Shown here: positions 1-8,909 of the stretch, piece after piece
How positions within the stretch are numbered: the first letter of the stretch is position 1
How the letters are laid out: every line of letters begins with the position of its first letter
Virus genome (UHGV): UHGV-2009704
Length of the DNA stretch: 8,909 nucleotides
Reading direction: 5' to 3' (one strand)
Source of the DNA: a virus
Translations under genes and position numbers: made by a program
Notes under the pieces: model-generated
The model's database searches: none
The model's input: only the letters and a program-made list of their open reading frames with translations
What the model was told of the DNA's origin: nothing

Positions 1-188
1 TAACGTGAAGACTTCATTACCGACAGATTTTCCGGAGAACGTGGTGACGGCAGTTGAAACCAATGTGTTGAGGTTGCACTGTCGCTTAAGCCGAGAATAC
101 GGTATTAAGTAAGATATGGGGTTTGGCCGTTGTTAATGAGCAGGACAATCATGACCGCCAACGACTGGATTCTCCCTTGGTTTATGTT

Positions 189-221
189 GGTGCGCATAAT
201 GTACGACTCGTTATGTTGAAA
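189..221. other. attL: degenerate dif-like site (XerC arm GGTGCGCATAA, 11-nt central region TGTACGACTCG, XerD-like arm TTATGTTGAAA)
   Basis: The first 15 nt are identical to the perfect dif at 8506-8520. The central region is 11 nt instead of 6, and the XerD-like arm matches TTATGTTAAAT at 9 of 11 positions. Confidence 0.7.
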
Positions 222-222
222 A

Positions 223-254
223 GGCCGCTGCGAAAATAGAATCCCGCAGCGGCC
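223..254 (-). terminator. Rho-independent terminator of the minus-strand accessory operon
   Basis: Perfect 10-bp GC-rich stem GGCCGCTGCG / CGCAGCGGCC with a 12-nt loop. On the minus strand it is followed by TTTTCAACATAA, 32 nt past the stop of the 286-990 CDS. Confidence 0.6.
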
Positions 255-285
255 TCTTTAGCATAACGTCATTGTGCGAACCAAT

Positions 286-990
286 TCATAATGCTGCGGG
301 AGCCACGTAATAGACAATCACAAATACAGCTAATGCTCCACCTGCTCTTACCCAGTTTGATATTTTGACTTCTATAAACCCGGGTATAAATGAGACTACC
401 CCAGCAACTGCTGCTGAAAGAATTATTCGAAAGAAAGTGTATTGAAAGTTCGTTGGATTAGGTATAAATATTGCGATTATTATAAAAAGAATAACAAGTA
501 AAATGCCAAAGCTAAATGCCGCTATTCTCTCGTGTGCTTTTGTCAATTTTTCTTTTCCTTTATTGTCAAATCCATATACTGGCATATCTTCATTAACGAA
601 AAGATTCCTTATTTCTTTTGCAGAACGTTTGTCATGGGCTTTTACTATCCTTTGCATTGAAGCAAAAGCAGTGGAGCTTGGTTTAATACTATTATCATTC
701 ATTACCTCTCTATATTTTTTGTAATGAGCTAAGATAAGGTGAAGAACATCAATGCATGTTTCTGCAAGCCATTGATTCCATTGAGTATTATTTAATTCAT
801 CTACTGTTCTGTTATGTGCAGCGCAGTGTTCTAAATAGCCGAAAAAACTGTCTCCACATGAATTCACGGTATCAAAATCACATTTACCAGATAGGTAACA
901 CTCTAATGACTCAGTATATTTTTCATATAAACGCTCAATTTCTTTTTTTTGATTATCAATGATACCGTGAACATCCATATCTGATTTCAC
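286..990 (-). CDS. Hypothetical protein (234 aa) with Cys-rich N-terminal soluble domain and 2-3 C-terminal transmembrane helices; accessory (moron) gene
   Basis: Long ORF from the six-frame track. The C-terminal 70 aa form hydrophobic stretches (IAAFSFGILLVILFIIIAIFIP, FFRIILSAAVAGVVSFIPGFI, ALAVFVIVYYVAPAAL). The start is either GTG at 988-990, overlapping the upstream stop (TAGTG), or ATG at 976-978. A terminator lies downstream. I recognise no homolog. Confidence 0.6.
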   Translation of the reverse strand: MKSDMDVHGIIDNQKKEIERLYEKYTESLECYLSGKCDFDTVNSCGDSFFGYLEHCAAHNRTVDELNNTQWNQWLAETCIDVLHLILAHYKKYREVMNDNSIKPSSTAFASMQRIVKAHDKRSAKEIRNLFVNEDMPVYGFDNKGKEKLTKAHERIAAFSFGILLVILFIIIAIFIPNPTNFQYTFFRIILSAAVAGVVSFIPGFIEVKISNWVRAGGALAVFVIVYYVAPAAL

Positions 991-1265
991 TATCTTTTTT
1001 GTTGAGTGTTATTTGACTGGGATTGAATTTTTGCCAATAGCGAACTTGCTTTCGATGTATTCAATCCATTACAAATCATTCTTGTAATCGGTTTTTTGTA
1101 AATTCGATGAACGATATTTTCAACTTCAGTGATGCTTTCATTGCCACTGAGTTTTTTTATCTCATTGAACATCTCCTCCAATTGTTCATTTGTTGGATGC
1201 CATTTGATTATATCTAATTCTTCCTCTAATGCTTTTTTAAAAAGGAAAACCTGAAAAGATAACAT
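990..1265 (-). CDS. Hypothetical small protein (91 aa) with conserved C-terminal tail GLNTSKASSLLAKIQ
   Basis: ATG at 1263-1265 is preceded by the strong RBS AAGGAAAG. The stop overlaps the start of the 286-990 gene. The C-terminal tail is homologous to that of the upstream small ORF, with synonymous third-position differences. Confidence 0.55.
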   Translation of the reverse strand: MLSFQVFLFKKALEEELDIIKWHPTNEQLEEMFNEIKKLSGNESITEVENIVHRIYKKPITRMICNGLNTSKASSLLAKIQSQSNNTQQKR

Positions 1266-1266
1266 A

Positions 1267-1563
1267 TTACTTTCCTTGTGTTGGTTTAGTAGTGGATTGT
1301 TGAGCTTTTTCTAAAAGCCTTTTTGCTTTAGATGTGTCCAAACCATCTTGGGCAAAGCCTTGTTGCTTATCATTCTGTTTTTGTTCACTTTTTTTTGGCG
1401 TATTCATCAGTATATACTTTGACTCGTTTTGTTTATCTCGATGACTTACTTTTTGTTTAAGTTTTGCACAAACTAGAACGTGCAGTGTTGGTAATACTGC
1501 ACGTTTGTACCATTCGTGGTACTTAATCCTTTTGTTTGGCAGACATGAGATCTTCTGCTGCAT
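1267..1563 (-). CDS. Hypothetical Lys/Gln-rich small protein with conserved C-terminal tail GLDTSKAKRLLEKAQ; start uncertain
   Basis: The ORF ends with TAA at 1267-1269, 1 nt before the next gene's ATG. The C-terminal 20 codons are supported by paralogy with the 990-1265 tail. Alternative starts are TTG 1581, ATG 1563 (overlaps the upstream ORF by about 40 nt) or ATG 1407. Confidence 0.4.
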   Translation of the reverse strand: MQQKISCLPNKRIKYHEWYKRAVLPTLHVLVCAKLKQKVSHRDKQNESKYILMNTPKKSEQKQNDKQQGFAQDGLDTSKAKRLLEKAQQSTTKPTQGK

Positions 1564-1705
1564 CTTTAGAGTAGTTATCAATCAGATAACCTAAAATCTC
1601 TGTCCATGTAATTGTTTTTCCTAGTTTTACACTGGCATTTATAGCCAGTCGTTCTAGTTTCATTTTTCTTTCTTCCGTCACGTTATAAGTCGTGCGCTTT
1701 GCCAT
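1523..1705 (-). CDS. Putative small DNA-binding regulator (60 aa, possible ribbon-helix-helix fold), first gene of the divergent accessory operon
   Basis: Its N-terminus, MAKRTTYNVTEERKMKLERLAIN, has a beta-strand then helix pattern typical of RHH (Arc/CopG-like) proteins. It sits directly next to the divergent control region upstream of gII. The RBS is weak. Confidence 0.45.
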   Translation of the reverse strand: MAKRTTYNVTEERKMKLERLAINASVKLGKTITWTEILGYLIDNYSKDAAEDLMSAKQKD

Positions 1706-1874
1706 TTTTTACGCTCGTTCAATGCAATATTTGAAGTGAGTATACATGCTCATGAACTCATATCATCCAAGCCTCTTGAACTCACTAGCTCACTGATGTA
1801 ATGTTAAAACACTAATGAACTACTGAACTCATGTGTTAGTAAGTCGTCATTTTTGCAATTTTGAGGATTTATTC
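1706..1874. promoter_or_regulatory. Divergent control region between the accessory operon and gII, with repeated TGAACT(C/A) motifs (candidate operators or iterons)
   Basis: TGAACTCA occurs at 1753-1760, 1777-1784 and 1824-1831, and TGAACTAC at 1816-1823. CTCACT is duplicated at 1781-1795. Possible gII promoter: -35 TTGAAC 1776-1781, -10 TAATGT 1799-1804. Possible minus-strand -10: TATACT at 1744-1739. Confidence 0.5.
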
Positions 1875-2927
1875 GTGATCGATTGGCTTACCGGGATTTT
1901 CCCTTGCACACACAAACCGCTTCCGGCGGGGAGTGTTGTCAGCGTTGATGCTGACGGTGCAATTGAGTGGGAAACCGTTAAGCGACTGACTGTTCGCGGC
2001 TCGCATGAAGCAACGATGAAAGTACGATCGATAGGATCTAATGGCGAAGGTAAAGCGACACATTTGTACATTGATGGTAATCCGTCCAAGTTTTTGCAGG
2101 GGCATTCTGTTGTTGGGTCGGATGATATACAAGGGCTCATGTTGACGGTCTATGCCAGGATTTTATCCTTATTGAATATTCCTCATGATTTAGCGTCTTA
2201 TAAAGCTGTTATAGCAGGTCAGTATAAAATTTCACGTGTTGACATTAATTACATGTATTCATTATCTACGCTAGAAAATGTCAGATCATGGCTTTATGCC
2301 GCCGAATTTAAAGCTAAAACACGCCATGGTCGCGCATGTGGGAAAGGCGGTACAGTTTATTTAGGTAAAAACTCCCGTCGATGGAGTCTGAAATTTTATT
2401 CAAAATATGATGAACACGTTTCGGGTAAAAAAGGGCACCAGATAGCCGAAGATTTTGTACGAGCCGGGTTACTGGACTGGACGAAAGATAAATTACGTAT
2501 TGAATTAACATTAAGAACAACTGAGCTTATTGATTTAAATTTAACGCTTGGCGCTAACTGGAATATGAAAACACCACGTCAATTATTCTCTGAATATGTA
2601 GGGAGAATAGAAATGAATCAGAATGCTATTTTAAGTGATGAAAAAATAACGAAACTGCCAAGAAAAATACAGTCAACTTATTTACTTTGGAAACAAGGGG
2701 CTAACATGAAAGAAATGTTACCTCATAACACTTTTTATCGCCATAGAAGAGAATTGCTTTCGTTCGGTATCGATATTAATTTCTATTGTGATTCACCAGA
2801 CTCTAATAACGTTGTTCCGCTAATAAGAACGCTGGAAGCCAAGCCAGTGGAAATCCCCTTATGGATTTATGAGAAAGGTTTTATTTTCGATTACAACCGT
2901 ATTTCGCACGCCAGTAGCTGGCATTAA
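1875..2927 (+). CDS. gII: Replication initiation protein pII (rolling-circle nickase)
   Basis: Recalled similarity to M13 pII: N-terminal MIDWL vs MIDML, KFLQGHSVVG vs KVLQGHNVFG, and C-terminal SNNVVPLIR vs CNNVVPLVR. GTG at 1875 has the RBS GAGGA 7 nt upstream. The track ORF starts at GTG 1833, which has no RBS. Confidence 0.85.
   Translation: MIDWLTGIFPCTHKPLPAGSVVSVDADGAIEWETVKRLTVRGSHEATMKVRSIGSNGEGKATHLYIDGNPSKFLQGHSVVGSDDIQGLMLTVYARILSLLNIPHDLASYKAVIAGQYKISRVDINYMYSLSTLENVRSWLYAAEFKAKTRHGRACGKGGTVYLGKNSRRWSLKFYSKYDEHVSGKKGHQIAEDFVRAGLLDWTKDKLRIELTLRTTELIDLNLTLGANWNMKTPRQLFSEYVGRIEMNQNAILSDEKITKLPRKIQSTYLLWKQGANMKEMLPHNTFYRHRRELLSFGIDINFYCDSPDSNNVVPLIRTLEAKPVEIPLWIYEKGFIFDYNRISHASSWH
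2613..2927 (+). CDS. gX: pX, in-frame internal initiation product of gII (104 aa)
   Basis: Internal ATG at 2613 is preceded by GGGAGAA. Its position and N-terminal MN match the M13 gX start within gII. Called by analogy with Ff. Confidence 0.5.
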   Translation: MNQNAILSDEKITKLPRKIQSTYLLWKQGANMKEMLPHNTFYRHRRELLSFGIDINFYCDSPDSNNVVPLIRTLEAKPVEIPLWIYEKGFIFDYNRISHASSWH

Positions 2928-2938
2928 AGGAAAGTAAT

Positions 2939-3256
2939 ATGTCTAATTATGGTCTTTTCGTTAAGGGTAAAATGTTGGGAGCCCGCCAACGTAATAAAGT
3001 TAATGGTCAGGGCTATTATAATGAAATTGGTATTGGCCTTGAAATACCTGATGGTTTTGGTGGTACAAAGCAGGATCAAATTATTATTCGAGTTTCTCAG
3101 ACTCTCGTTAACGCAGGTCTAATGAACCAGGCGAATGCTTTCATTGGGAAATTAGTTCAAATTCCTGTCTATGTCCGTGCGTGGTCAATGGAGGGTAGGG
3201 AAGGTGTAACTTATAATGTTTCTTCCGATGGTGGCATCGCAGAGATCAAAGGTTAA
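2939..3256 (+). CDS. gV: Putative ssDNA-binding protein pV (105 aa, divergent)
   Basis: Sits at the canonical gV position, immediately after gII, with the strong RBS AAGGAAAG. Sequence resemblance to the Ff gV OB-fold is only weak (GQGYYNEIGIGLEIPDG vs GKPYSLNEQLCYVDLGNEYP). Confidence 0.6.
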   Translation: MSNYGLFVKGKMLGARQRNKVNGQGYYNEIGIGLEIPDGFGGTKQDQIIIRVSQTLVNAGLMNQANAFIGKLVQIPVYVRAWSMEGREGVTYNVSSDGGIAEIKG

Positions 3257-3258
3257 AT

Positions 3259-3345
3259 ATGGACGATGTTATTCAAATTTTGATAGCGTCTGGCATCGTT
3301 ATTTCTTTTGGCCTCGGCGCGATTACTGCGGGGGTCTTTCGTTAA
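3259..3345 (+). CDS. gVII: Minor coat protein pVII (28 aa)
   Basis: Small hydrophobic ORF MDDVIQILIASGIVISFGLGAITAGVFR in the Ff gVII position, with RBS AAAGG. Its stop overlaps the gIX start (TAATG). Confidence 0.6.
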   Translation: MDDVIQILIASGIVISFGLGAITAGVFR

Positions 3346-3440
3346 TGTATATCGTTTATTTCTTCGGGGCTTATACCTTTGGTTTTGCCCTTTTCTATGC
3401 GGTCGGTTCATTTAAATCATTTTCTGACCGATTAATGTAA
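3345..3440 (+). CDS. gIX: Minor coat protein pIX (31 aa)
   Basis: MYIVYFFGAYTFGFALFYAVGSFKSFSDRLM resembles M13 pIX, including the C-terminal RLM motif. It is translationally coupled to gVII. Confidence 0.6.
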   Translation: MYIVYFFGAYTFGFALFYAVGSFKSFSDRLM

Positions 3441-3459
3441 CCTTAATGGAGTTATTCCT

Positions 3460-3702
3460 ATGAAAATTCTGTCTACTGTTAAATATAAAGTTGCTCTGGC
3501 TTCAACTGCGCTTTTTGTTTCTGCAAGTTCTTTTGCGGCTGAAGGCGCTACAGGTGGTACTGATTATGCAGGTCAGGCAATGGATGCTTTGTTGACTCAG
3601 GCAAATGATCTCATTGGTAAAGTATGGCCTGTTGTTGTGGCTGTGGTTGGCGCTGGGCTTGCCATTCGTATTTTCAAAAAATTCTCTTCAAAAGCGGTTT
3701 GA
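3460..3702 (+). CDS. gVIII: Major coat protein pVIII precursor (80 aa)
   Basis: Signal peptide ending SSFA, then mature AEGATGG...[25 protein letters not shown]. This closely matches the IKe/Ff major coat protein, including the C-terminal basic [11 protein letters not shown] is GGAG. Confidence 0.9.
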
Positions 3703-3711
3703 ATTTCACTC

Positions 3712-3735
3712 AGGGGCACTCGTTGCCCCTTTATT
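3712..3735 (+). terminator. Rho-independent terminator downstream of gVIII
   Basis: 7-bp stem AGGGGCA / TGCCCCT with a 5-nt loop, followed by TTATT. This is the same position as the strong terminator after gene VIII in Ff phages. Confidence 0.7.
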
Positions 3736-3748
3736 AAAGCGGGTTACT

Positions 3749-5029
3749 ATGAAAAGGAAAATATTAATTCTTTCCGCTGTCCTCATTTCTCCTTTTTCAC
3801 ATGCTGAGTCATGGGAAAGCATTACTAAATCCACTTATCAAAGCTCTGCCTACGCTGAAAGTAAGCAAATAACCAATCAGGATGGCTCTAAGTCAACGGT
3901 TTACTATATTGATGCTGCTATGCAGGCCTCCGCTTGTCAGGGTGCTAAATCCAGTGCTCAGAGTGTATTTACTCAGGTTAAACCAACTTATGAGGGTATC
4001 TGGCCTGATTCTGAATTCCGTCTTGTTTTTACTGGTGATTGTACTTACAGCGATTCACCAGGGCAGAAGGATAAATATTGGTCTTTAACGGCTTATATTG
4101 TTGGTGATATTCAGCGTTCTGTTCCTGATGAAAAACCTACTGACCCGACACCAGAAGAAATTTGTGAAGCGAAGCCGCCAGAAGAAGGTGTATTTAATAA
4201 TGTTGATTCATATGATGGTGGTCGTTATATCTACTATAACGGCTGTGAATATGAGGCTACTGGTGTCATTGTTTGTCAGGGTGATGGTACTGTTTGCGCT
4301 GCAACATGGAAGCCTACAGGTACTGTAGCTGACCCCTCTGATAAACCCTCAACCCCCCAAAATGGTGGTGGTGAGTCTGGCGGTGGTGAGTCTGGCGGTG
4401 GTGAGTCCGGTGGCGGTAGTTCTGGCGGTGGTGAGTCCGGTGGCGGTAGTTCTGGCGGTGGTGAGTCCGGTGGCGGTAGTTCTGGCGGTGGCTTTAGTGG
4501 TTCCAGTCTTTCTAAAGGTGATATTCAGTCTGCTATCGAAGGTGCTTCACCCAAAATAGCCAGCGATATTCATGATAAATTAACGGAGAAAGACACTTCA
4601 TCAGATGATAAAAAAAATGCCGATGAACAAACTAGGAATAATATAAATCGTCTTGACGATTCCATTAACAATCTTACGCGGGGGGCTGGCCGTTTTGCTG
4701 ACCCTTCAGGTGGTGATTCTCGTTATGGAAAGGGCGACTCTGAATTAGATGGCGCTTCTACTTTGGCTGATTCTGAATTGGGAATTGAAAAGGATTCTCA
4801 CGGTGCTTTATGGGAAGCATTTTTAAATAAAGGTGCTATGCTGCCTAATTTACCCAATGGTAACGGCTGCTCTGATTTTATTATTTTTCCCGGAGAGGTT
4901 TATCAGATTGATATTGGTTGCGATAAATTACTGACTATTAAAGATGTTCTTTCATGGGTTTTTTATTGCCTTACGTTCTGGTATGTCTTTACTTCTTTAA
5001 CTTCATTGCTTCGCAAAGGGGGTGAGTGA
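3749..5029 (+). CDS. gIII: Minor coat / host-attachment protein pIII (426 aa)
   Basis: Signal peptide [19 protein letters not shown], a Gly-rich linker of ([10 protein letters not shown]) repeats, and a C-terminal membrane anchor IGCDKLL...[17 protein letters not shown] resembling IKe/Ff pIII. Its stop overlaps the gVI start. Confidence 0.9.
4367..4486 (+). repeat. Tandem coding repeats in the gIII glycine-rich linker
   Basis: Two 15-bp units GGTGGTGAGTCTGGC (4367-4396) are followed by three perfect 30-bp units GGTGGTGAGTCCGGTGGCGGTAGTTCTGGC (4397-4426, 4427-4456, 4457-4486). Confidence 0.9.
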
Positions 5030-5370
5030 TGCCTTTATTATTAGGTATTCCTGCATTGTTGCGTTTTCTTATTGGTCTTGTTCCTTTGTTTATTGGCTAT
5101 GTGGCGAGTTTTTTAGCTCGACTTGCTACCAGAACAGGATTAATCGCCTTTGCATTGGTCGCATTAATTACAACAACTGTTACGCTTTTAATGCAGTACC
5201 TTGCTGAGGTCATGTATAACGGTTTACCTGCTGATTTCTCCCATTTAATGGCGTCTGTATTGCCTGACCATTTTCAGGCGTGTGTTAACGTTATTATGGT
5301 TACTCGTATCAGTGTTTTTGTTTTCGATTTAAAACAAAAATTTCTTGATTATGCAAACAGGGTGATTTAA
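5029..5370 (+). CDS. gVI: Minor coat protein pVI (113 aa)
   Basis: [24 protein letters not shown] resembles M13 pVI (MPVLLGIPLLLRFLGFLLV). The ATG overlaps the gIII stop, and the stop abuts the gI ATG. Confidence 0.85.
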   Translation: MPLLLGIPALLRFLIGLVPLFIGYVASFLARLATRTGLIAFALVALITTTVTLLMQYLAEVMYNGLPADFSHLMASVLPDHFQACVNVIMVTRISVFVFDLKQKFLDYANRVI

Positions 5371-6465
5371 ATGGCGGTTCATGTAGTAACAGGCAAATTA
5401 GGCTCAGGCAAGACACTTGTTAGTGTTTCCAGAATACAGGAAAGACTTGCTAAGGGTTGTCCTGTTGCCACTAATCTTGATCTTAAATTGCATAATATGC
5501 CTATGGTTGGGCGTTATGCGAAAAAAACGCGCGTTATTCGCATTCCTGACAAGCCTTCATTAAATGATTTACTTGCTATTGGTATTGGGAATACATCTTA
5601 CGATGAATCCCGTAATGGCCTCCTTGTACTTGATGAATGTGGTACTTGGTTTAATTCCCGCTCATGGGGTGATAAAGACAGACAACCTGTTATTGACTGG
5701 TTTTTACATGCCAGAAAATTAGGCTGGGATATTATATTTTTGATTCAGGATATTTCGATAATGGATAAGCAAGCTCGTCTGGCGCTTGCTGAGCATGTTG
5801 TTTATTGTCGCCGTTCAGATAAATTAAACATTCCTTTTGTTGGCTCCATTATGAATTTGGTTTCAGGGGCGCGATTTTCTTTACCAAAGGTACACTTTGG
5901 CATTGTCAAATATGGTGATAACGTTAATTCAATTACTGTTGATAAATGGATATACACCGGAAAATCATTATATTCCGCCTACAATACAAAACAGGTTTTT
6001 ACTGATAACTATCCGCATGGTGCTTATTCGCTTTTGCCACCATTTATCACGCACGGTCAATTTTCTGTTCACAGAGGATTTAATTATTATATGCGCCTCA
6101 CGAAAATTTATTTTCGCAAATCGAACCGTCTTATATTAATGCTTTCTTTTTTGGCGCTGGGGCTTGCGCTTGGTTTCTGGCTCCAGTCTGGAAAGAATGT
6201 TGATGAAATCTCCGCTATTAAATCTGCTTATGCTGAACAGGCGAGGGCGGTAACGCCTGATTCGTCCAGTGACTTACCCCGACTTTCTATTAATTCTTTT
6301 TCACAACTTGGCTTTGACGTTTCCGTTACGTTTGTTGATGCAAAAGGTACGAAATATCAGTATTTTGATTTGATTAAAGATGGTTATTCCGTTGATATTA
6401 AAGATGCCTGTCGTGTTGTTATTAGAAAAGGCCGTTATTTACAGACTGTTATCTGTCAGGAGTAA
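5371..6465 (+). CDS. gI: Assembly protein pI (Zot-like P-loop ATPase, 364 aa)
   Basis: MAVHVVTGKLGSGKTLVSV carries a Walker A motif, and there is extensive recalled similarity to M13 pI (LLVLDECGTWFN, IDWFLHARKLGWDIIFL, ALAEHVVYCRR). A transmembrane segment lies near residue 255. Confidence 0.9.
   Translation: MAVHVVTGKLGSGKTLVSVSRIQERLAKGCPVATNLDLKLHNMPMVGRYAKKTRVIRIPDKPSLNDLLAIGIGNTSYDESRNGLLVLDECGTWFNSRSWGDKDRQPVIDWFLHARKLGWDIIFLIQDISIMDKQARLALAEHVVYCRRSDKLNIPFVGSIMNLVSGARFSLPKVHFGIVKYGDNVNSITVDKWIYTGKSLYSAYNTKQVFTDNYPHGAYSLLPPFITHGQFSVHRGFNYYMRLTKIYFRKSNRLILMLSFLALGLALGFWLQSGKNVDEISAIKSAYAEQARAVTPDSSSDLPRLSINSFSQLGFDVSVTFVDAKGTKYQYFDLIKDGYSVDIKDACRVVIRKGRYLQTVICQE
6091..6465 (+). CDS. 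gXI: pXI, in-frame internal initiation product of gI (124 aa)
   Basis: Internal ATG at 6091 begins MRLTKIYFRK, which aligns with the M13 pXI start MKLTKIYLKK. An AGAGGA lies upstream. Called by analogy with Ff. Confidence 0.5.
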   Translation: MRLTKIYFRKSNRLILMLSFLALGLALGFWLQSGKNVDEISAIKSAYAEQARAVTPDSSSDLPRLSINSFSQLGFDVSVTFVDAKGTKYQYFDLIKDGYSVDIKDACRVVIRKGRYLQTVICQE

Positions 6466-6472
6466 TATTATT

Positions 6473-7738
6473 ATGCGCTCTGTTATTGTTGCTTTTTTAT
6501 TTGCCTGTTCATTCTGCGTTTCTGCTGAAACTGTTAATTTAAACAATTCATCTGTTCGCTCATTTGTTCAGTGGTATTCTTCAAAAACTGGCAAGCCTGT
6601 TATTGTTAATCCTGATATTAAAGGAAACGTAACCGTATTTAATGCTGATGTTAATCCAACAAATATTGATGATTTCTTTAAGTCTGTTCTGAATGCTAAC
6701 GGTTTTGTCATGCTTTCTGGCAATCCTGCGGTAGTCTCTTTGCCGTCTAAATTACCTTCACAGATGGTTTCGGATTCCGATGATTCTGATAACCAGTCTT
6801 ATGATACTTTTCCTTCTGAGCCATCTTACCAGCCAGTACCTGTGGCGCTTACGGTCAGAAATTTTAAGCTGACAAAAGTTAGATCGTCCGATGTTCAGCA
6901 ACTGATTAAAATTTATCTTGATTCTAATGGTGGTGGTAATGTCGTGGATTATCCAGGCAATAACTCGCTGATTGTTTCTGCGCCTGACGAGCTGCTGCCG
7001 GTTCTGTCCGATTTTATCAATTCTGTGGATGTTGCCCGCGATCAGGTTCTCATTCAGTCGCTGATGTTTGAAACCAGCTTGTCTGATGGCGTTGATTTAT
7101 CGTTTGCGGCAGGTTCTGCATCCGGTCATAAGGTTGCGGGGGGCTTTAATACTTCTGCACTGGGTAGCGCTCTTTCTACGGCGGGCGGTTCTTTTGGTAT
7201 TTTTGATGGTAACGTGTTGGCGCTGTCTCTGCGTGCTGTCCAGAGTAATTCACGCTCTAAGGTGATTTCAACGCCGCGTATTCTTACTCAGTCTGGTCAG
7301 ACTGGTTACATTTCCGTAGGTAAGAATGTGCCGTTTATCACCGGAAAGGTAACGGGCGAATCTGCCGGGGTAAATAATCCGTTTCAGACTATCGAGCGTC
7401 ATGATGTTGGCGTTTCTCTCAAGGTAACGCCTGTTGTCATGGGTAACGGGCAACTAGTTCTGACTATCGACACTCGCGCTGATTCAATCAGCAATGATGA
7501 TCAGGCATCCGATATTATTACTAATCAGCGCCAGATTCAGACGACAGTCCAGATTAAGGATGGTCAGACGTTGTTATTGGGGGGGCTTATCGATTCATCG
7601 TTTAGCAATGCTGAGCGTTCAGTTCCAGTTATAAGTAAAATTCCTCTTATAGGCTGGATTTTCAGTAGCAAGGCAGACAGCAATGAACAGCGTATTATGT
7701 ATATTTTGCTTACAGCACATATCATTCGTCCACTTTGA
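6473..7738 (+). CDS. gIV: Outer-membrane secretin pIV (421 aa)
   Basis: Signal peptide MRSVIVAFLFACSFCVSA and strong recalled similarity to M13 pIV (SFAAGS, GGSFGIF, PRILT, VPFITGKVTGESAGVNNPFQTIER, GQTLLLGGL, SKIPLIG). RBS is AGGAG. Confidence 0.9.
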   Translation: MRSVIVAFLFACSFCVSAETVNLNNSSVRSFVQWYSSKTGKPVIVNPDIKGNVTVFNADVNPTNIDDFFKSVLNANGFVMLSGNPAVVSLPSKLPSQMVSDSDDSDNQSYDTFPSEPSYQPVPVALTVRNFKLTKVRSSDVQQLIKIYLDSNGGGNVVDYPGNNSLIVSAPDELLPVLSDFINSVDVARDQVLIQSLMFETSLSDGVDLSFAAGSASGHKVAGGFNTSALGSALSTAGGSFGIFDGNVLALSLRAVQSNSRSKVISTPRILTQSGQTGYISVGKNVPFITGKVTGESAGVNNPFQTIERHDVGVSLKVTPVVMGNGQLVLTIDTRADSISNDDQASDIITNQRQIQTTVQIKDGQTLLLGGLIDSSFSNAERSVPVISKIPLIGWIFSSKADSNEQRIMYILLTAHIIRPL

Positions 7739-7779
7739 TGGATAGCGGGTAGGTGCGTGAGCCCTGCTCGCTATCCATC
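7737..7779. other. Imperfect hairpin immediately after gIV (candidate packaging signal or ssDNA structural element)
   Basis: GATGGATAGCG (7737-7747) pairs with CGCTATCCATC (7769-7779), with further imperfect pairing inward and a 9-nt loop. No T-tract follows, so it is not a canonical intrinsic terminator. Confidence 0.5.
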
Positions 7780-7807
7780 AAATGGACATTATTGATTGGG
7801 GTAACTA

Positions 7808-8116
7808 ATGGATTCTTATGGGATTTTATCTGCTCTGGCAGAACGAACGATTACAGCGGAAGAAGCAAAAACAATGACACTTGCAGCCAGAAGTTCTTCG
7901 GCTCAGGTAAATGAAGCATCACTTGCTCTGTTACTGATTGATAATACTCTGGATGCGATCAAAGCAGCTGCCAGTGAAGGGAAAGGATACACTTTACTTC
8001 CTTCTTATGAGATTTCTTTAAAAGCCATTGATTTAGCAGAAGAATTTTTAAGGAAACAATGCGGCTATGTTATTGATAACCAGAATGGCGTAAGGACGGT
8101 CTATTGGTTTATATGA
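7808..8116 (+). CDS. Hypothetical protein (102 aa), accessory ORF downstream of gIV
   Basis: ORF from the six-frame track with a possible weak RBS (GGGGT). It has no transmembrane segment and I recognise no homolog. It lies inside the prophage between gIV and attR. Confidence 0.5.
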   Translation: MDSYGILSALAERTITAEEAKTMTLAARSSSAQVNEASLALLLIDNTLDAIKAAASEGKGYTLLPSYEISLKAIDLAEEFLRKQCGYVIDNQNGVRTVYWFI

Positions 8117-8117
8117 T

Positions 8118-8162
8118 AACCCCGGACAGTGACAAAACTTGCTTTTGTTAGTGTCCGGGGTT
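8118..8162. other. Long imperfect hairpin (about 20-bp stem) between the two distal accessory ORFs; candidate origin or packaging-signal structure
   Basis: AACCCCGGACAGTGACAAAA (8118-8137) pairs with TTTTGTTAGTGTCCGGGGTT (8143-8162), with one mismatch and one G-T pair, and a 5-nt loop. It starts 2 nt after the stop of the 7808-8116 ORF. A T-run follows at about 8183-8190. Confidence 0.55.
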
Positions 8163-8233
8163 GGCCAAGCCGAACAATTCTGTTTTTTTAGCGTTATTGC
8201 TGATTCGGCGCGGCAGCATTACGAGGAGATAAA

Positions 8234-8467
8234 ATGCAATTTTTCACATCCAGCGATACTGTAATGTTATGTGCGAAGACCTGCGATCGCTGTGGTCGCC
8301 ATGCGAAGACGGTGGTAGATGACATTGAGTTCAATGAGTTTCTGTCTGTTAATCACTTAGCTGGATACGGTTCAATTTTTGGTGACAGTAATCGCTTAAA
8401 ACTGGATTTATGCCAACATTGCCTGAAAGACGTCCTGGGCCAGTGGATTACGGTCTGTGACCAATGA
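8234..8467 (+). CDS. Hypothetical small protein (77 aa) with two CxxC pairs (possible zinc ribbon)
   Basis: Strong RBS GAGGAG 5 nt upstream of the ATG. Cys pairs are CDRC (residues 17-20) and CQHC (60-63). It ends 38 nt before the dif site. Confidence 0.6.
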   Translation: MQFFTSSDTVMLCAKTCDRCGRHAKTVVDDIEFNEFLSVNHLAGYGSIFGDSNRLKLDLCQHCLKDVLGQWITVCDQ

Positions 8468-8505
8468 CGGCACCGGTAACGCCAGTTCCCACCATCCTTA
8501 CCATT

Positions 8506-8533
8506 GGTGCGCATAATGTATATTATGTTAAAT
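8506..8533. other. attR: canonical 28-bp dif site (XerC arm GGTGCGCATAA, central TGTATA, XerD arm TTATGTTAAAT)
   Basis: Exact match to the enterobacterial dif core sequence as I recall it. It is a direct repeat of the left dif-like site. Confidence 0.85.
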
Positions 8534-8909
8534 ATGGTGGGTTTGTTCTTAAGTTCATGTGTTCCGCTCTTTCAGTAGCTTAACTGATGAATCAGTCAGC
8601 AGCTTTTGCCGTGCAAGCTACGCGGCGGTTCGTACCAGATTGGCCACCTCCATCTCCTGGTTCGCTTTCCCCTCCCCCCGGTAAACCTCACCCAACGTTA
8701 ATTAATGATGTCAGTATGTGGGCGCTATCCTTGTATGTAAAATCCACTGACGATTACGCCCATCTGTGAAAAAAAACTCACAATGCCATTCGATGCATCT
8801 CCATACCGAACGAGGCGTTATCGTCTTTATCGCCCCGTAGTGGATATCAGAAAATCAATCAGGGCCTTCACTCTTTTCGTTTTACCCGCGTTTTTGGGGT
8901 AATAGAGAT

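Follow-up and report, generated by a model that had tools for sequence, protein, structure and literature searches.

A solitary UPΦ-type inovirus prophage at the Escherichia coli dif site, with an inverted pair of dif-like sites that points to CTXΦ-type integration

Working Xer sites have central regions of 6-8 nt (6 in dif and 8 in cer). Elements of the CTXΦ type integrate as folded single-stranded DNA, in a reaction that has been described as irreversible (PMC3089051, PMC4246890, PMC4266046), and in CTXΦ itself, where the centres of attP1 and attP2 measure 12 and 7 nt, the integrated state comprises one functional dif plus two sites that are non-functional (PMC3089051). YpfΦ has inverted pairs of XerC/XerD sites, and its integration restores an intact dif at the 3' end and leaves the other junctions with an imperfect site (PMC4266046). 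Both YpfΦ and CUS-1Φ have been listed as CTX-type, irreversible elements (PMC4246890), an assignment that is itself sequence-based. In E. coli, the UPΦ viruses form tandem arrays, and the prophage of strain ECONIH2, which was given the name UPΦ, has served as a case study (PMC7307601; Shapiro & Putonti 2020, Virus Evolution).

Here we analysed a stretch of 8,909 nt (the window) which carries, at the dif site of E. coli, a solitary 8,317-bp copy of this previously described type of inovirus prophage. It is 99.8% identical at the nucleotide level to the ECONIH2 prophage and, like other UPΦ viruses, integrates at dif and carries IKe/I2-2-related core genes I-VIII, with two ORFs, probably h1 and h2, behind gIV. 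A preliminary description of the window had proposed a filamentous prophage at dif, and both the inovirus gene set and the empty locus of strain 746 bear this out, but the phage type was already known. The dif that holds the insertion has hipA on one side and a LysR-family gene on the other. The same hipA-dif-LysR flank has no insert in E. coli strain 746 (empty site at L002 11973-12000), where it equals window positions 1-203 joined to 8521-8909, both of them host sequence; the insert therefore spans 204-8520, or equivalently 200-8516 when counted from the XerC cleavage position, and the crossover falls within the 15 nt common to both junctions, GGTGCGCATAATGTA. This comparison, which the preliminary description had set as its own refutation test, found positions 204-221 absent from the uninterrupted locus, so that they are not host sequence. 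The left flank (1-188, plus strand) contains hipA's 3' end, as far as position 112, followed by the native DNA that precedes dif; it agrees with the RefSeq annotation of strains 16843 and 746 and is colinear with the empty site. The right flank (8534-8909, plus strand) is intergenic and runs into the 3' end of the minus-strand LysR-family regulator gene. With host sequence on both sides, this copy stands alone, while a check for arrays found tandem and heterologous ones in other E. coli genomes; insertion at dif was seen in E. coli, Y. pestis, Klebsiella and Phytobacter.

At the right junction, attR (8506-8533, plus strand) is a perfect 28-nt dif, GGTGCGCATAA-TGTATA-TTATGTTAAAT, which joins a phage XerC arm to a centre and a XerD arm from the host. 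The uninterrupted strain 746 locus has an identical dif, and in the window this site alone matches dif when as many as 3 mismatches are allowed, with 0 matches expected; the proposal that one dif is regenerated at this end thus holds at the level of a perfect sequence. The phage right end (8496-8520, plus strand) comprises ccttaccatt, the phage-borne XerC arm and TGTA. It recurs identically in a tandem-prophage junction of strain 16843 (L001 11508) and in a circular 9.6-kb episome (L049), each of which carries an attP rebuilt from window positions 8496-8520 and 204-282.

Between the att sites lies a full inovirus set, all on the plus strand: gII, the rolling-circle replication initiator (1875-2927; PF05144 3e-70, PF05155 5e-29; 85% amino acid identity to YpfΦ and 56% to I2-2); gV, the single-stranded DNA-binding protein (2939-3256; PF17426 7e-51; 93% to YpfΦ); the minor coat proteins gVII (3259-3345; the 3259-3440 pair is placed and sized as in I2-2, with the RefSeq name 'tail virion protein G7P-2') and a candidate gIX (3345-3440), so called from its position; gVIII, the major coat protein (3460-3702; PHROG 1646; 55% to I2-2); gIII, the attachment protein (3749-5029; PF21443 pilus-binding domain 6e-26, PF05357), in which 4363-4491 encode a linker of Gly/Ser/Glu repeats (tandem repeat period 15/30); gVI, a minor coat protein (5029-5370; PHROG 1944; 53% to I2-2); gI, the Zot-family assembly ATPase (5371-6465; PF05707 3e-40; 64% to I2-2); and gIV, the secretin (6473-7738; PHROG 1012 2e-153; 73% to I2-2). 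Two accessory ORFs follow on the same strand, probably h1 (7808-8116; PHROG 4115; placed as in PMC7307601) and h2 of UPΦ (8234-8467; PHROG 5435; two CxxC pairs; PMC7307601). They are separated by a non-coding block (8117-8220, plus strand) with a strong hairpin at 8118-8162 (fold z = -5.2), which keeps 82-88% nucleotide identity to YpfΦ, Brenneria and Klebsiella phages despite unrelated flanking genes and is a candidate origin, packaging signal or terminator.

The minus strand carries four ORFs between the left att site and gII. Nearest the junction is a variable cargo ORF of 230-234 aa (286-978; PHROG 5814, unknown function), which matched no Pfam or PADLOC family, shows by eye a C-terminal hydrophobic segment and is swapped for other genes in related prophages. 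A second variable cargo ORF of 91 aa (990-1265; PHROG 6502) and a small ORF (1267-1581; PHROG 6875; called at 1267-1407 in RefSeq, L001) come next. The fourth, a conserved 60-aa ORF divergent from gII (1523-1705; PHROG 2503; 98% amino acid identity in a Brenneria phage), is a candidate regulator by virtue of its position, which is that of rstR in CTXΦ, and between it and gII (1749-1831, plus strand) the motif CTnnTGAACT(CA), a candidate operator, occurs three or four times in direct orientation. All substantial ORFs of the insert could thus be assigned to inovirus functions or to small families without known function. As had been proposed, the phage has no integrase of its own: there is no tyrosine or serine recombinase among the insert ORFs, and no Phage_integrase, Resolvase or Recombinase match in Pfam or PHROG.

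The left junction, attL (189-221, plus strand), is a hybrid site, also seen in the tandem junction and in L049, and the counterpart of CTXΦ attP1. Its layout is exactly as first described: a perfect host XerC arm GGTGCGCATAA (189-199), an 11-nt centre TGTACGACTCG (200-210) and a phage XerD-like arm TTATGTTGAAA (211-221) with 2 mismatches to the XerD arm. The first 4 nt of the centre (TGTA) are common with dif, after which the two diverge, and the identity is thereby confined to the XerC side. Taken alone, the XerD-like arm does not stand out from chance, with 11 matches where 7.75 are expected. A scan for composite dif-like sites (XerC arm with up to 2 mismatches, spacer of 4-13 nt, XerD arm with up to 3 mismatches) found 3, against 0.007 expected from 300 dinucleotide shuffles. 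Missed at first reading was an inverted site at 256-282 on the minus strand, GGTTCGCACAA-TGACG-TTATGCTAAAG, with a 5-nt centre, the counterpart of CTXΦ attP2. At the sequence level there is thus a perfect dif at the right and a pair of dif-like sites at the left. The non-canonical spacing noted for the left site is real, but the earlier reading was incomplete in that the site is more than a degenerate junction, being the phage's attP1-like site with an inverted partner.

The two sites are joined by an apex stem-loop (222-255, from DNA folds; GGCCGCTGCG, 12-nt loop, CGCAGCGGCC). A hairpin at 223-254 had been recorded as a terminator; it is present, yet that reading is incomplete, since it forms the apex of a 94-nt forked hairpin predicted for the (+) strand at 189-282, our candidate attP(+). 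The inverted XerD- and XerC-like arms lengthen the helix to 35 pairs, and the predicted fold (-32.1 kcal/mol, z = -7.96) was equalled by 0 of 200 shuffles; the reconstructed circular junction folds at -31.2 kcal/mol. In the free phage, the 5' XerC arm of attP(+) comes from 8506-8516. The unequal centres, over-long on one side (11 nt) and short on the other (5 nt), imply a folded site with a partly unpaired centre, and the att sites sit on the strand that is coding-sense and packaged. The apex is not flagged as a terminator by the consensus scan, since a 12-nt loop is longer than the scan allows; the stem-loop may also terminate the minus-strand gene ending at 286.

The inverted dif-like site is kept in YpfΦ (L005), Phytobacter (L010), Brenneria (L004, L041) and IMG/VR relatives. 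YpfΦ of Y. pestis has the same pair, long on top and short below, in a block 99% identical to ours, and the divergent relatives L006 and L007 retain the inverted partner with a 6-nt centre where the apex sequences are unrelated. Centres in relatives measure 11 or 10 nt with 5 nt, 9 with 6 (L006) or 11 with 6 (L007), and the inverted arms persist alongside other cargo genes and other apex sequences. Across 14 variants, 93.9% of hairpin pair cells are paired, against at most 52% in slid controls, the T12-G13-T14 of the centre never varies, and compensatory change is seen at 4 pairs, a modest covariation support because most variants are nearly identical. The attP1-like site shares its strand with gII-gIV, the packaged strand, in every relative, and the XerC arms of the Brenneria phage, GGTTCGCATAA, agree with a dif arm recorded for a genome of the Pectobacteriaceae (PMC2731167).

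Because the attP1-like site pairs with an inverted attP2-like site in a forked hairpin, we place the element in the CTXΦ type and consider it likely that it entered dif as folded (+) single-stranded DNA through catalysis by XerC, with replication finishing the reaction, and that the step is in effect irreversible. The phage, having no recombinase, would employ host XerC/XerD. On the packaged (+) strand, the attP1-like and attP2-like sites would anneal into the 94-nt forked hairpin, providing a XerC arm and a XerD arm around a short centre that is partly unpaired. XerC would then exchange one strand pair with dif; the TGT(A) that both centres have on their XerC side would stabilise this step, and replication would turn the resulting pseudo-Holliday junction into a prophage. 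The left product would consist of the host XerC arm, the attP1 centre, the XerD-like arm, the hairpin apex and the inverted attP2, and the right product of the phage XerC arm followed by host centre and XerD arm, giving the perfect dif, which would keep serving dimer resolution and be able to accept further elements. Xer excision is not expected, because the double-stranded left-hand sites both lack workable spacing. The stable lysogeny previously suggested from spacing alone agrees with the literature on CTXΦ-type irreversibility, for a more specific reason. The junctions, the sites, the predicted fold with its conservation, the lack of an integrase and the identity of the phage come directly from the data, whereas the single-stranded substrate, catalysis by XerC only and irreversibility are inferred; a search of the literature found no experiment showing single-stranded integration of a UPΦ virus, which counts against the model.

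The best-surviving alternative is that a double-stranded replicative form recombined with dif through the 189-221-type site alone, as in VGJΦ, with XerC strand exchange resolved by replication; integration would then have no need of the inverted site and hairpin, and the reaction could run backwards to excise the prophage. The end structure, in which the XerC side has 15 nt in common and dif is regenerated, is equally compatible with this, and the fact that double-stranded integration by XerC would give an identical prophage structure counts against our main model. So does the bottom-strand centre: at 5 nt it falls short of CTXΦ attP2 (7 nt) and of Xer sites known to work (6-8 nt). An episomal double-stranded form exists (L049), the copy number of YpfΦ arrays is dynamic (PMC4266046), and superinfecting YpfΦ is reported to insert preferentially at the imperfect site between resident copies (PMC4266046), which the simple CTX model can accommodate only if homologous recombination plays a part. 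We nevertheless regard double-stranded entry as unlikely: an 11-nt centre is outside working Xer spacing, the 12-nt attP1 of CTXΦ being described as non-functional (PMC3089051); the inverted partner, kept where the apex has been replaced (L006, L007), would be left unexplained; and reviews group YpfΦ and CUS-1Φ with CTXΦ, not VGJΦ.

Much less probable still is that the 223-254 hairpin is merely an intrinsic terminator of the minus-strand cargo gene, next to dif-like arms that are incidental. The GC-rich stem does lie about 30 nt past the stop codon at 286 on the minus strand and is followed by TTTTC. Against this, the consensus scan is silent, the loop has 12 nt and the T run is short, and the XerD-/XerC-like arms, which extend the helix to its full length, persist with different cargo and apex; a dual role as attP apex and terminator is possible. 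An origin of the left site as native host DNA or by chance likeness, with entry by homologous recombination or a recombinase encoded elsewhere, can be dismissed, as it has nothing in its favour except the weak significance of the XerD-like arm alone and is refuted by the absence of 204-221 from the empty locus and its presence in free circular phage DNA (L049), as well as being at odds with dif insertion in four host groups.

Returning to CTXΦ-type integration, its cassette, comprising the folded attP hairpin, gII and gV, may be a portable module exchanged in Enterobacterales between two inovirus backbones that are unrelated in other respects, YpfΦ/CUS-1 and the IKe/I2-2-like UPΦ viruses, with XerC arms tracking the host dif, a proposal to which we give an even chance. 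If it is true, non-integrating, conjugative-pilus Lineavirus-type phages could turn, in one recombination step, into stable residents of the chromosome of extra-intestinal E. coli. Among complete E. coli genomes, the YpfΦ/CUS-1-type module occurs in 99 and that of the window type in 49.

The likeness to UPΦ extends to dif integration that repeats only the first 15 bases of dif (PMC7307601), two novel ORFs after gIV, reverse-oriented ORFs beside dif, a variable glycine-rich g3p linker, and gII and gV as the only genes common with YpfΦ; the UPΦ901 query is 7,560 bp against 8,317 bp for this copy, and PMC7307601 stresses tandem arrays, whereas the window holds a solitary copy. The published description covers the shared gII and gV and omits the shared attP hairpin: 'attP' and 'hairpin' have 0 occurrences in the text of PMC7307601, where attP was not analysed. 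New relative to that paper is the attP block (window 187-286), 99% identical to YpfΦ/CUS-1Φ and, judging by its sequence, with a CTX-type inverted pair. Accessory genes at both ends are a further likeness to YpfΦ, to which alignment is limited to the attP block, 1454-1533 (reverse-strand ORFs), gII-gV (80% at nucleotide level) and 8115-8220; the gVIII-gIV module is unrelated at nucleotide level, the structural proteins are unrelated or 27% identical (gIV, 27%), and the accessory ORFs are others. Assignment to CUS-1Φ or YpfΦ proper was rejected, as nucleotide identity of about 99% does not extend over the 7.1-kb core.

By contrast, gVIII, gIII, gVI, gI and gIV keep the order of I2-2/IKe with 52-73% protein and about 68% nucleotide identity, and g3p has the same N-terminal pilus-binding domain followed by a Phage_Coat_A domain; I2-2 and IKe differ in being non-integrating and without accessory genes beside dif (PMC7307601). 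The morphogenesis genes thus appear Lineavirus-like (IKe/I2-2) and the gII-gV-attP module YpfΦ/CUS-1-like. Two further classes of element that exploit Xer do not match: the VGJ type, since no phage site in direct orientation exists besides the one with an 11-nt centre, against a workable 6-7 bp or so (PMC3089051), and the TLC type, whose attP lacks a proper XerD arm, since the identity in the centre is on the XerC side and not the XerD side; no TLC-type Xer activation factor was found among ten proteins compared with Pfam, where only the gII, gV, gIII and gI families scored above the curated cut-off.

The mechanism is experimentally proven for CTXΦ only, and the likeness here lies in att sites and gene order. 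The hairpin is about 150 nt there and about 94 nt here, with sites about 90 bp and 34 nt apart, respectively. Common to both are an inverted dif-like pair with one over-long centre (12 nt there, 11 here) and one shorter centre (7 there, 5 here), an attP1 XerC arm identical to the host dif arm, a centre in which only TGT(A) is common with dif, an attP1 XerD arm that starts TTATGTTGA, and the prophage order of attP1, attP2, reverse gene block, replication and morphogenesis genes and functional dif (PMC3089051).

[quoted passage not shown] At the left end, an exact second copy of the XerC arm (189-199) is followed by the 11-nt centre TGTACGACTCG and by TTATGTTGAAA, a XerD arm with two mismatches, again as described. 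The XerD-like arm by itself does not occur above chance (11 matches against 7.75 expected). Composite sites, defined as a XerC-like arm, a 4-13-nt spacer and a XerD-like arm, lie far above it, with three found against 0.007 expected from 300 dinucleotide-preserving shuffles. The third of these, previously overlooked, is on the minus strand at 282-256 and reads GGTTCGCACAA-TGACG-TTATGCTAAAG.

On the left the insert is bordered by the 3' end of hipA; the flanking DNA on the right extends into a LysR-family gene. In E. coli strain 746 the locus is uninterrupted (hipA ... ttggtttatgtt-GGTGCGCATAATGTATATTATGTTAAAT-atggtgggt ...), and since this empty site is colinear with 1-203 and 8521-8909 of the window, the insert can be set at 204-8520 (8,317 bp). 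The 18 nt at 204-221 are absent from the host sequence, and the left junction is therefore not native host DNA, the reading that the preliminary description had itself named as contrary to its proposal. Alignment places the crossover somewhere within the 15 nt common to both ends, GGTGCGCATAATGTA, the place of XerC cleavage. Strain 16843 has a second, related prophage directly after the first, joined to it by ccattGGTGCGCATAATGTACGACTCGTTATGTTGAAAaggcc, and a 9,565-bp circle from E. coli TUM14759 (NZ_CP128883.1) holds one copy of the same attP arrangement; because both carry it, the attP rebuilt from 8496-8520 and 204-282 can be taken as a real sequence in free phage DNA. The circle, deposited as an untypable E. 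coli plasmid though it is a phage genome, is an episomal CUS-1/YpfΦ-type filamentous phage with its attP hairpin intact.

The two phage-borne dif-like sites (189-221, plus strand; 256-282, minus strand) are inverted on either side of a GC-rich stem-loop at 223-254. As single-stranded DNA, 180-295 is predicted to fold into one long forked hairpin (-32.1 kcal/mol; z = -7.96; 0 of 200 shuffles fold equally well), and the rebuilt circular junction is predicted to fold in the same way (-31.2 kcal/mol). Within this predicted structure, the helix of the XerC arms contains a single mismatch and a single G·T pair, TG(T)ACG of the centre pairs with CGTCA, leaving ACTCG (206-210) bulged on the top strand, and the helix of the XerD-like arms contains one mismatch and two G·T pairs. 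The apex is the 223-254 stem-loop, which had been described as a terminator: the hairpin is present, but a consensus terminator scan did not flag it, because its loop is 12 nt, and a secondary terminator role is possible for the minus-strand gene that stops at 286. On the predicted fold, the left site would be half of a CTX-type folded attP with the hairpin as its apex, and the 'pseudo-dif' on the left should be read jointly with the hairpin and the inverted 256-282 site as the remnant of such an attP. With this one refinement, the observation of a prophage at dif with asymmetric att sites is confirmed and its interpretation supported.

In CTXΦ, attP1 (AGTGCGTATTA-TGTGGCGCGGCA-TTATGTTGAGG, 12-nt centre) and attP2 (AATGCGTATTA-TACGCCA-TTATGTTACGG, 7-nt centre) stand in inverted orientation and form attP(+) by folding of the (+) single strand; XerC then exchanges a single pair of strands, and replication completes the process (PMC3089051). 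The attP regions of CUS-1Φ and YpfΦ show features of single-stranded integration, according to the statement in PMC3089051 that cites Val et al. 2005, and for YpfΦ an intact dif restored at the 3' end, an inverted pair of XerC/XerD binding sites, and tandem arrays with an imperfect dif between copies have been reported (Derbise and Carniel, PMC4266046). Both phages are listed as CTX-type, in which XerC acts first, replication completes the reaction and integration is irreversible (Das, PMC4246890). Given this literature on CUS-1Φ, YpfΦ and CTXΦ, the asymmetric att sites in the window are the expected, published signature of the CTX type.

Among loci retrieved using gII, the same architecture is found in Y. 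pestis YpfΦ, with 99% identity over the block that corresponds to 187-286 of the window, in Phytobacter, in two Brenneria-type phages and in many IMG/VR contigs. The diverged Brenneria phages have GGTTCGCATAA-TGTGCCACACG-TTATGT(A/T)GAAA as the top site and GGTTCGCATAA-TAACG-TTATGC(A/T)AAAG as the inverted one, with XerC arms that pair perfectly with each other; because GGTTCGCATAA also appears in PMC2731167 as the XerC arm of dif in Erwinia carotovora subsp. atroseptica, the comparison suggests that the XerC arm of attP tracks the host dif. In two more distant relatives, Klebsiella spallanzanii L006 and L007, the apex sequences are unrelated, and the top-strand centre is still long (9 or 11 nt) and accompanied by an inverted dif-like site whose centre is 6 nt. 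In a set of 14 distinct variants, pairing is kept in 93.9% of pair cells, against 52% or less with slid partners; four pairs show compensatory change and the TGT that opens the centre is invariant, a covariation signal that is modest because most of the variants are nearly identical. In every locus compared, the site with the long centre is carried by the gII-sense strand, which is the one that inoviruses package. At the Y. pestis YpfΦ locus, the XerC arm of the leftmost junction (993) is GGTGCACATAA and that of the tandem junction (9735) is GGTGCGCATAA, a single-base difference that is at most suggestive of a natural crossover marker; if GGTGCACATAA were the native host arm, it would mark the crossover at the XerC side, and the 'dif' reported for strain CO92 would carry a phage-derived arm.

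It is close to certain that Xer recombination put this UPΦ prophage into dif. The sites enclose all the genes expected of an inovirus, namely gII (PF05144, PF05155), gV (PF17426), gVII, a gIX-like ORF, gVIII, gIII (PF21443 pilus-binding domain and PF05357), gVI, gI/Zot (PF05707) and gIV (a secretin), with neither integrase nor resolvase among the genes, in keeping with the proposal of a phage that lacks its own integrase. As to how it entered, architecture, conservation and analogy make a CTX-type route the best-supported model and, in our judgement, a probable one: the (+) strand attP would fold, XerC alone would catalyse integration of this single-stranded DNA, and Xer-mediated excision would be absent. 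The main rival, which we consider unlikely, is that the double-stranded form integrates through the 11-nt-centre site, as in VGJ-type elements; this would yield the same prophage ends, but it leaves unexplained both the conserved inverted partner and the unworkable spacing of that site. Under CTX-type integration, by analogy with CTXΦ, a solitary copy would yield no progeny via rolling-circle replication across a tandem junction and should be locked in and poorly productive, which bears on whether uropathogenic E. coli prophages of this kind still spread.

Accessory ORFs, four on the minus strand beside the left end and two small ones after gIV, all fall in PHROGs of unknown function, and PADLOC assigned none of them to a defence-system family (the lone match, Csx27 at E = 0.006, was taken as noise). 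At 286-1265 on the minus strand, between the attP2-like site and a conserved 60-aa ORF, the two to three ORFs form a swappable cargo slot: compared with 11605-12810 of the strain 16843 locus and 8355-9109 of the E. coli-like contig L003, in near-identical prophages of other E. coli it is occupied by very different genes, whose annotations include an ECs_2282-family zinc-binding protein, a death-on-curing toxin and a PD-(D/E)XK nuclease. Neither of the cargo proteins in the window (234 and 91 aa) has a match to a Pfam or PADLOC family, and the slot is worth watching for fitness or defence genes. In L003, which is E. coli-like although its label is that of a Nanosynbacter MAG, hipA is separated from the UPΦ prophage by a 3.4-kb island of non-phage DNA (4811-8257). 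The left junction of this island consists of a dif-like site whose centre is 8 nt, AGTGCGCATAA-TGTGTTGA-ACATGTTAAAT, and at its right end ~25-47 nt of native dif-upstream sequence is repeated before the next XerC arm; the island resembles a distinct Xer-exploiting element that forms an array with the phage. L003 and L007 are binned as Candidatus Nanosynbacter and Aerococcus MAGs and carry enterobacterial dif-region prophages, with hipA also in L003; these assignments are probably binning errors.

The non-coding block at 8117-8220 includes a strong hairpin (8118-8162; fold z = -5.2). Blocks with 82-88% identity to it are present between unrelated ORFs in the YpfΦ, Brenneria and Klebsiella phages, and it is a candidate origin for gII or packaging signal; the 1706-1874 region is a further candidate for the nick site of gII. 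An Rfam search of the window gave no match. An Ff-type (+) origin at TTTAGTAGTGGATTGTTG (1285-1302), which resembles the f1 nick site, was rejected because the motif is confined to loci with the same cargo module; it is missing from relatives with near-identical gII. Three to four direct copies of CTnnTGAACT(CA) at 1749-1831, in the divergent promoter region that separates gII from the 60-aa ORF, may be operator sites. In g3p (3749-4280) the N-terminal pilus-binding domain, PF21443, precedes a Phage_Coat_A domain; this order is probably that of the IKe/I2-2 type, which suggests a conjugative pilus as receptor for this chromosome-resident prophage. Alignments to other E. coli copies break at a 15/30-nt tandem repeat (4363-4491) encoding the g3p linker, in agreement with the linker variability published for UPΦ and IKe.

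That the phage is CUS-1/YpfΦ itself was rejected, as alignment is limited to attP, gII-gV and two short blocks. With YpfΦ it aligns over the attP block, a reverse-strand ORF stretch (1454-1533), gII-gV (80% at the nucleotide level; 85% and 93% in amino acids) and the non-coding 8115-8220, whereas its morphogenesis proteins are 52-73% identical to those of Lineavirus I2-2. Megablast of the whole window against a phage collection gave IKe and PEar fragments only, with no deposited phage genome that is nearly identical. The structural module of the window type occurs in 49 of 5,426 complete E. coli genomes, and the module of YpfΦ/CUS-1 type in 99 of them. Discovery value is small, since the hijacking of XerCD at dif by filamentous phages is textbook knowledge and both the UPΦ group and the att asymmetry of YpfΦ/CUS-1 relatives are already published; the practical value is annotation. 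[quoted passage not shown] The case-study strain of that paper, ECONIH2, is among the best matches here (99.8%), and its text leaves attP structure aside, with no instance of the words 'attP' or 'hairpin'. To gII and gV, the sequence comparison makes one small addition: the predicted CTX-type attP hairpin is also common to UPΦ and YpfΦ.
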